Positions 17,771 to 18,446 of a stretch of DNA of 42,376 nt are shown in pieces; within the stretch, counting starts at the first letter, position 1; each line of letters begins with the position of its first letter. A program made the position numbers and the translations under genes. Source of the stretch: a virus (taxonomy: Duplodnaviria > Heunggongvirae > Uroviricota > Caudoviricetes); IMG/VR virus record IMGVR_UViG_2778261452_000001; one strand, 5' to 3'. The notes under the pieces were generated by a model. That model searched no databases and was not told the DNA's origin. It saw only the letters and a list, made by a program, of their open reading frames with translations.

Positions 17771-17800
17771 ATTGCTCTAATTGATTGCTATAATTGAGCC
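17771..17800 (+). promoter_or_regulatory. tandem overlapping C1 operators (ATTGCTCTAATTGATTG and ATTGCTATAATTG) overlapping a TATAAT -10
   Basis: Two operator-like 17-mers at 17771-17787 and 17784-17800; TATAAT at 17789-17794; matches the known C1-repressed ref promoter arrangement. Confidence 0.7.
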
Positions 17801-17854
17801 GCAGTTTTTGTCAACTACGAAGACGTTGCCATTACTTCACTCCTTGACATCATT

Positions 17855-17880
17855 GGCGGCCATTAGGCCGCCTTTTTTTT
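17855..17880 (+). terminator. intrinsic-terminator-like hairpin GGCGGCC-ATTA-GGCCGCC followed by T8, ending 5 nt before ref ATG
   Basis: Perfect 7-bp GC stem plus eight T read directly. Confidence 0.6.
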
Positions 17881-17885
17881 GCCAT

Positions 17886-18446
17886 ATGAAAACAATCGAA
17901 CAAAAACTTGAACAGCGCCGCGAGTGGCAGAAGGCAGCCAGAGAACGAGCGATCGCTCGGCAACGGGAAAAGTTGGCTGACCCCGCCTGGCGAGAATCGC
18001 AATATCAGAAAATGCGGGATTCTATCGACCGCCGTATCGCTAAACAGAAAGAGCGCCCACCAGCCAGCAAAACGCGGAAAAGTGCGGTAAAGATAAAATC
18101 TCGTGGCTTGAAGGGGCGAACACCGACAGCGGAGGAACGGAGCATCGCCAGTGCTCTTGGCGCTCTCCCCTGCATTGCCTGCTACATGCATGGAGTAATA
18201 TCTGAAGAGGTATCTTTGCACCATATCTCCGGTCGTACCGCGCCGGGTTGTCACAAAAAGCAATTGCCCCTTTGTAGATGGCACCACCAGCATGCAGCAC
18301 CGGCTGAAGTAAGAGAAAAATATCCCTGGCTGGTCCCTGTTCATGCCGATGGTGTGGTTGGAGGCAAGAAAGAATTCACCTTGCTGAACAAGTCAGAGAT
18401 GGAGTTGCTGGCTGACGCCTATGAGATGGCAAACATTATGCACTAA
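17886..18446 (+). CDS. ref: Ref, recombination enhancement function (HNH-type endonuclease)
   Basis: 186-aa product beginning MKTIEQKLEQRREWQ with Cys/His cluster CIACYMH...HHISGRTAPGCHKK...CRWHHQH; ATG at 17886 (track start 17781 is upstream extension through operator and hairpin). Confidence 0.8.
   Translation: MKTIEQKLEQRREWQKAARERAIARQREKLADPAWRESQYQKMRDSIDRRIAKQKERPPASKTRKSAVKIKSRGLKGRTPTAEERSIASALGALPCIACYMHGVISEEVSLHHISGRTAPGCHKKQLPLCRWHHQHAAPAEVREKYPWLVPVHADGVVGGKKEFTLLNKSEMELLADAYEMANIMH

Follow-up and report, generated by a model that had tools for sequence, protein, structure and literature searches.

Anatomy of the ref control region

The window analysed here, meaning the whole stretch of 42,376 nucleotides, comes from a P1-type phage-plasmid, which over positions 17300-18500 shares 98.9% identity with phage RCS47 and 93.3% with P1. 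Coordinates of the P1 record (AF234172) are converted into window positions by adding 15809. The ORFs of cre (16247-17278) and c8 (17329-17640) lie upstream of ref, whose coding sequence (17886-18446, + strand) specifies a RecA-dependent HNH nuclease of 186 amino acids (Pfam PF16786 RecA_dep_nuc, E = 1.3e-49). Just 3' of c8 stands a terminator hairpin (17644-17664, AGCCTGG-CAAGG/CTCCTTG-CCAGGCT), which was picked up by the terminator scan as a - strand match from 17664 to 17644 and which is flanked by an A-run and a T-run. It shields the ref control region from cre and c8 transcription and is invariant but for one loop base in the aligned P1-like plasmids. A C1-operator-like site with three mismatches to the consensus, ATTGCTCTAATTATTTG, is also found between the cre stop codon and the c8 ATG (17296-17312). 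P1 has ATTGCTATAATTATTTG at this position, with no operator annotated there in its record; judging from this site, c8 may be under C1 control in the lineage of the window.

The ref 5' region binds H-NS, and the CGATAAA motif recognised by H-NS occurs at 17751-17757 on the + strand (PMC4713147). The C1 operator Oref (ATTGCTCTAATTGATTG, 17771-17787, + strand) is identical to the annotated P1 Oref (1962-1978). It overlaps the promoter P2ref (17766-17794, + strand), transferred from the P1 annotation (1957-1985), with its -35 at 17766-17771 and its -10, TATAAT, at 17789-17794 (P1 1980-1985). This -10 is invariant across all leader variants. From the spacing, transcription from P2ref is expected to start at about 17801, followed by an untranslated + strand leader of about 85 nt (17801-17885). 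A second promoter, P1ref, is predicted inside this leader (17826-17853, + strand) by both the P1 annotation (2017-2044) and the promoter scan, with TTGCCA, a 16-nt spacer and TG-n-CATCAT. A 15-nt block, GTCAACTACGAAGAC (17809-17823), lies just past the predicted P2ref start; it is near-invariant in all leaders, those of ref-less plasmids included, and its flanking bases vary.

The + strand hairpin GGCGGCC / ATTA loop / GGCCGCC (17855-17872) and the T8 tract directly 3' of its stem (17873-17880) complete the leader. Read from 17855 to 17888, the junction is GGCGGCC-ATTA-GGCCGCC-TTTTTTTT-GCCAT-ATG, so that 5 nt separate T8 from the ref ATG. The sequence-only reading had placed a perfect GC hairpin followed by eight T between a C1-operator/TATAAT promoter and the ref start codon; all its coordinates turn out to be exact, and both Oref and the P2ref -10 are confirmed by the P1 record. 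In P1 itself, leader, hairpin, T-run and start context are the same (85/85), and the operator and promoters occupy the same positions. The difference is limited to the host element, the window being RCS47-like with a Ref protein 95% identical to P1 Ref. The P1 record annotates promoters and an operator near ref, but no terminator feature at the hairpin.

The leader terminator in P1-type plasmids and in more distant relatives

The terminator scan describes the element of the ref leader as a stem of seven G-C pairs out of seven, with a 4-nt loop and a T8 tail. The hairpin alone has a folding energy of -16.2 kcal/mol (z = -3.3) and accounts for 86% of the ensemble; it is also the centroid structure when the whole 100-nt leader is folded. 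Under a strict definition (perfect stem of 7 bp or more, including 6 or more G/C; loop of 3-8; 7 T or more among the 8 bases that follow), a search of both strands of the 42-kb window gives three sites, among them the ref leader hairpin and the post-c8 hairpin, versus none in 300 dinucleotide-preserving shuffles. The T8 lies on the strand transcribed from P2ref, and the sequence past the hairpin on the other strand is AATGATG; the terminator site is therefore unidirectional. With a G+C-rich stem, a short loop and an uninterrupted U-tract directly 3' of the stem, the element thus has the features of an intrinsic terminator, and by its sequence it appears to be a genuine, functional-looking Rho-independent terminator. 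It is also positioned as an attenuator, between the P2ref -10 (17789-17794) and the ATG (17886).

Conservation was followed in 80 Ref loci from IMG/VR, together with P1 and two ref-less plasmids, which reduce to 30 distinct leader sequences. The seven stem pairs are maintained in all of them (210 of 210 cells paired). Five pairs never vary, and the other two vary solely by C-to-T changes in the 3' arm, giving G-U pairs. The loop reads ATTA, ATCA, TAAA or GAAA, the T-run comprises 7-10 T where ref is present and 6 T in the ref-less plasmids, and the spacer between T-run and ATG is GCCAT, GACCAT or ACCTT, while the upstream leader has accumulated substitutions and indels. This pattern of variation indicates that the helix, and not the primary sequence, is under selection; since no double compensatory change is seen, it falls short of a proof. 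The leader is joined to the ref 5' end in at least 565 plasmid records.

A comparable arrangement is found in Candidatus Pantoea alvi PSNIH6 (L090, 94-kb contig, positions 458-640; the same as IMG/VR L092). An operator identical at 17 of 17 positions to P1 OrepL (TTTGCTCTAATAAATTT) is followed there by a -10-like TATTAT, the hairpin GCCGCC-TCCG-GGCGGC (-14.3 kcal/mol), T7 and, after 94 nt, the ATG of a ref homologue. This homologue is about 60% identical to Ref, and its leader is unrelated in sequence to the P1-type leader. Two non-homologous hairpins thus occupy the same place between a C1 operator and ref, which argues for a function. A leader terminator is nevertheless no general feature of Ref genes, being absent from the D6-type, the Buttiauxella-type and the other homologues examined. 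No leader hairpin was found upstream of D6-type ref genes. D6 ref itself has an ordinary Shine-Dalgarno (SD) sequence (AAGAGG), and the palindromic operator that precedes it is of another type. The D6-type ref genes (L086:1500-1560 and L098-L109) share a conserved near-palindrome, TGTTAGAAAATCAATTTTGA(A/T)(A/T)TTCTAACA, on their upstream side, which probably serves another repressor as operator.

The same cassette occurs in plasmids that lack ref at this position. Fifty-one records, including pE2855-2, p2RM15113, pTA13-2 and E. albertii plas2 (L002:1560-1690, L003, L110, L111), retain the series cre, c8, operator, TATAAT, leader, hairpin and T6; no more than 3 nt further on, a convergent ant gene (ant/icd operon) ends with its stop codon. 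The homology of these ref-less plasmids to the window stops exactly at the end of the T-run. In the E. albertii plasmid pEA22_2 (L112:330-460), what is left is the hairpin with about 10 upstream bases (TGAAATCAC), joined to the ant 3' end, and this remnant is preceded by the head-processing gene pro and by a second GC hairpin. The leader hairpin thus also looks like a free-standing insulator and a recurrent mosaic or recombination boundary. Because the cassette exists without ref, the conservation of the stem cannot be credited to ref control alone. The start contexts differ as well (...AAGAGGCAGCCATC-ATG in D6 versus T8-GCCAT-ATG in the window), and a mosaic join may account both for the lack of an SD and for the ref ATG lying 5 nt from the T-run, an admittedly weak observation.

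Three further variants of the region deserve mention. In one (L085:1501-1953), Ref is only 150 amino acids long, about 36 residues of its basic N-terminal region having been removed by an internal deletion that keeps the frame; the leader, the hairpin and the ATG are intact. About 110-130 nt upstream of the ref ATG in L039 and L041, the left half of Oref and everything upstream are replaced by TTCCGTTTTCTGAGACGACCCC, with -10, leader and hairpin intact. This replacement sequence resembles a terminal inverted repeat of the Tn21/Tn3 family, and a transposon may have inserted into the operator. The homology to the ref leader breaks at the equivalents of window positions ~17835 and ~17817 in L004 (1632-1732) and L005 (1614-1648), respectively, ref being lost from that position; opposite-strand Tn3-family transposase genes lie 34-100 nt past the break.

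The start of Ref and the question of regulated read-through

The sequence-only reading had also noted that no SD could be accommodated between the T-tract and the ATG, and this is borne out. Within the 20 nt that precede the ref ATG, the most stable anti-SD duplex reaches only -1.5 kcal/mol, weaker than at random window positions (median -2.3), compared with -5.8 kcal/mol for D6 ref. No anti-SD complementarity was found 5-12 nt upstream of the ref ATG, and none of the 30 variants creates an SD. However, cre (16247) and c8 (17329) score poorly too, with best anti-SD duplexes of -2.5 and -2.8 kcal/mol. On this sequence measure, the SD-less start of ref is not special locally, weak translation signals appearing to be common in the region around cre, c8 and ref.

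Three lines of evidence favour the ATG at 17886 as the start codon: indels that break the frame occur directly upstream of it among the variants; codons 2-31 evolve as coding sequence, with 3, 2 and 7 variable sites at the first, second and third codon positions, the same third-position excess as in the rest of the gene; and the KLADP motif lies at an equal distance from the predicted start in the Pantoea homologue. An N-terminally extended Ref, translated through the hairpin from the in-frame TTGs at 17808, 17826, 17844 and 17853, could be ruled out, because the reading frame is not kept in many variants (T-runs of 7-10, GCCAT or GACCAT, a 1-nt deletion) and because these TTGs have no SD. Initiation that is independent of an SD on U/A-rich leaders depends on ribosomal protein S1. 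The ref start resembles such leaders in its U8 before the AUG, its A-rich and weakly structured coding start and its lack of anti-SD complementarity, a likeness that is one of sequence and has to be read with the equally poor SDs of cre and c8 nearby. The T8, as the only upstream element adjoining the start codon, could possibly act as a U-rich, S1-type translation enhancer.

Regulated read-through could rest on an alternative structure or a sensing element in the leader. Before the 3' arm of the hairpin emerges, a helix is predicted between 17825-17831 (GUUGCCA) and 17854-17860 (UGGCGGC), with a duplex energy of -8.6 kcal/mol. The leader folds at -23.4 kcal/mol with the terminator versus -14.9 kcal/mol for the best alternative. 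The terminator fold is thus far more stable, in keeping with a default-off logic. Among the variants, the alternative helix has 15 unpaired cells and no compensatory change, and shuffles equal the observed value. A second candidate (17798-17802 with 17856-17860) keeps its wobble pairs, but lies mostly upstream of the likely transcription start. Neither antiterminator helix finds support in covariation, nor does a conserved 5' leader hairpin (17804-17811 with 17817-17824), which is not maintained in divergent variants.

No leader peptide could be recognised, since the leader (17801-17885) contains neither ATG nor GTG, and its four TTGs all lack an SD; they are in frame with ref in the window, but in many variants indels have shifted them into another frame. 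All Rfam matches remain sub-threshold, the best one at 22.9 bits compared with a gathering score of 41, so that no known RNA family is recognised. A sensing element was thus found neither in the leader itself nor by Rfam, be it a leader peptide or a known RNA that binds a ligand or a protein. The trp, his and pyrBI attenuators and the riboswitches share with ref an intrinsic terminator in the 5' leader, and in ref too a weaker alternative helix could compete with the 5' arm. Unlike them, the ref leader has no leader ORF with a start signal and no Rfam match, and its alternative helix is neither conserved nor compensated.

At the scale of the window, eight C1-operator-like sites are present versus 0.25 expected, and a terminator follows within 250 nt downstream at only one of the eight, the ref site. 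Leader terminators are therefore not a general feature of the C1 operons of the window, and the device, absent at the seven other sites, is specific to ref and does not belong to a system shared by early operons. No element resembling nut or qut was identified. The comparison with phage lambda, where N/nut acts at tR1 and Q/qut at tR', holds in that a lytic-phase gene is likewise separated by a terminator from a repressor-controlled or early promoter, and read-through would rise after loss of the repressor. It is limited by the other C1-operator sites without leader terminator in the window, and by the fact that no antiterminator protein is known in P1: there was no direct evidence for one in 2023, and the leader terminator is itself one of the few published hints that P1 might use antitermination, with no factor found (PMC10695390).

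Regulated attenuation thus finds no support in the sequence, in which evidence for a cis-encoded switch is lacking. It follows that the regulator of read-through, if any, would be a trans factor, and that otherwise read-through would be a simple leak. The earlier proposal of attenuation or antitermination layered on C1 repression is therefore retained in part. What stands is a leader terminator below a C1-controlled promoter, with an always paired stem, an ATG without SD and a recurrence in Pantoea, in agreement with a model reportedly proposed for P1 in 1988; what lacks support is the regulated antitermination.

Probable attenuation of ref and competing readings

The element is probably a leader attenuator of P2ref transcripts, which dampens the expression of a harmful nuclease. 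Most P2ref transcripts would, as we infer, stop by default at the T-run, yielding an RNA of about 75-80 nt, and ref would be carried only by the read-through fraction. Read-through might be a plain leak, or might be helped by some function that becomes available after C1 inactivation. The read-through mRNA would then be poorly translated from an SD-less AUG located 5 nt past the U-run, possibly with the assistance of the U-tract and S1. Through the combination of C1 and H-NS repression with the terminator, Ref would be kept very low in lysogens and would be limited or delayed after induction.

Such an arrangement is not new. Windle, Laufer and Hays reportedly gave evidence in 1988 (J Bacteriol 170:4881), as the title of their article has it, for an attenuator-antiterminator control of P1 ref. 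The element of the window is base for base the same as this 'attenuator', so that its observation here, correct as it is, adds nothing to a description already made for P1. What is new are the recurrence in Pantoea, the 51 ref-less cassettes and the D6-type ref genes without leader hairpin.

C1 control, induction and the harm done to the host are taken from published work, whereas the anatomy of the element, its departure from chance, its pattern of conservation and the missing SD come from the present analysis. The ref mRNA increases 73-fold after thermal inactivation of C1, a qPCR value normalised to total RNA, which may include a rise in phage copy number, and its peak is lower and later than those of ssb, dmt and kilA (Ronayne et al. 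2016, PMC4713147). Ref lowers lysogenisation 40-fold and increases the killing of P1 lysogens by ciprofloxacin (PMC4713147). P1-like phage-plasmids are common in Enterobacteriaceae, and the tightness of Ref control is consequently of importance to them. The range of options is narrowed by the failure to find a conserved RNA antiterminator or a leader peptide, the restriction of the device to ref among the C1 operons of the window, its recurrence in Pantoea and the survival of the cassette without ref.

One way around the terminator is provided by P1ref. The sequence-only reading had left no room for a separate promoter, which holds for the 5 nt past the T-run, but P1ref is predicted upstream of the hairpin (-35 at 17826-17831, -10 at 17848-17853). 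A single base separates the end of this -10 from the hairpin; transcription would therefore begin within the 5' arm, at about 17858-17861, and the full hairpin could not form. Read-through is accordingly not strictly required for ref expression. RNAs starting at these positions fold at -7.6 to 0 kcal/mol versus -16.2 kcal/mol for the full hairpin, and should escape termination. The ref mRNA could then come mainly from P1ref, the hairpin merely insulating ref from P2ref, c8 and cre transcription. The P1 record annotates this promoter as predicted, the promoter scan gives it 9 of 12 matches plus a TG extension, its TGA(C/A)ATCAT stretch is nearly invariant, and GenBank entry M27041, which begins at P1 position 2004, contains P1ref but neither P2ref nor Oref. 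We nevertheless consider this bypass unlikely. P1ref is only predicted and has a weak -10 (CATCAT); lacking an operator, it does not account for the C1 control of ref and its induction upon C1 inactivation (PMC4713147). Moreover, the conserved stretch is kept in ref-less plasmids and in pEA22_2, where the -35 is gone, so that its conservation is no evidence of promoter function. A further possibility, far less probable, is a stand-alone small RNA gene, a C1-controlled unit giving a 75-80-nt RNA with a function of its own, ref being merely downstream. It would have a defined promoter and a strong terminator, and operator, TATAAT, hairpin and T-run are intact in the 51 ref-less plasmids. However, no part of the region is less conserved than the leader, the stem and the 15-nt block excepted, the upstream helix of the leader is not maintained, no Rfam match reaches the gathering score, and the Pantoea leader is unrelated in sequence. 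Complementarity of the leader to a possible trans antisense target is at chance level, both in the window and in P1 1-50000. A 9-nt complementarity links leader positions 17803-17811 (AGTTTTTGT) to ref codons 5-8 (17900-17908, ACAAAAACT), again at chance level (E ~21); it is weakened and not conserved in P1.

The mosaic context suggests yet another reading, in which the terminator is a free-standing insulator at a recombination junction, the position of the ATG and the loss of the SD are by-products of the mosaic join, and Ref is made by unregulated leak. The evidence comes from the 51 records in which P1-type and ref-less homology ends right after the T-run, before the convergent ant stop codon, from pEA22_2, where little more than the hairpin is joined to ant after pro, from D6 ref, with its normal SD followed by GCCATC-ATG, and from the antiterminator candidates, none of which is conserved. 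It has to be weighed against the maintenance of the arrangement in the 565 or more ref-bearing plasmids, its repetition with a different hairpin sequence in Pantoea, and the 1988 title, which reports evidence for attenuator-antiterminator control. We regard it as somewhat doubtful, yet as the most plausible of the rivals. It is mainly concerned with the origin of the element; a mosaic boundary does not contradict an attenuator role in ref-bearing genomes, and the two readings are largely compatible, differing only on whether read-through is regulated. Rather improbably, one could go one step further and see in the cassette an autonomous C1-controlled unit, short RNA or insulator, and a recurrent recombination boundary, to which ref would have been added later as a passenger depending on some P1 antitermination function.
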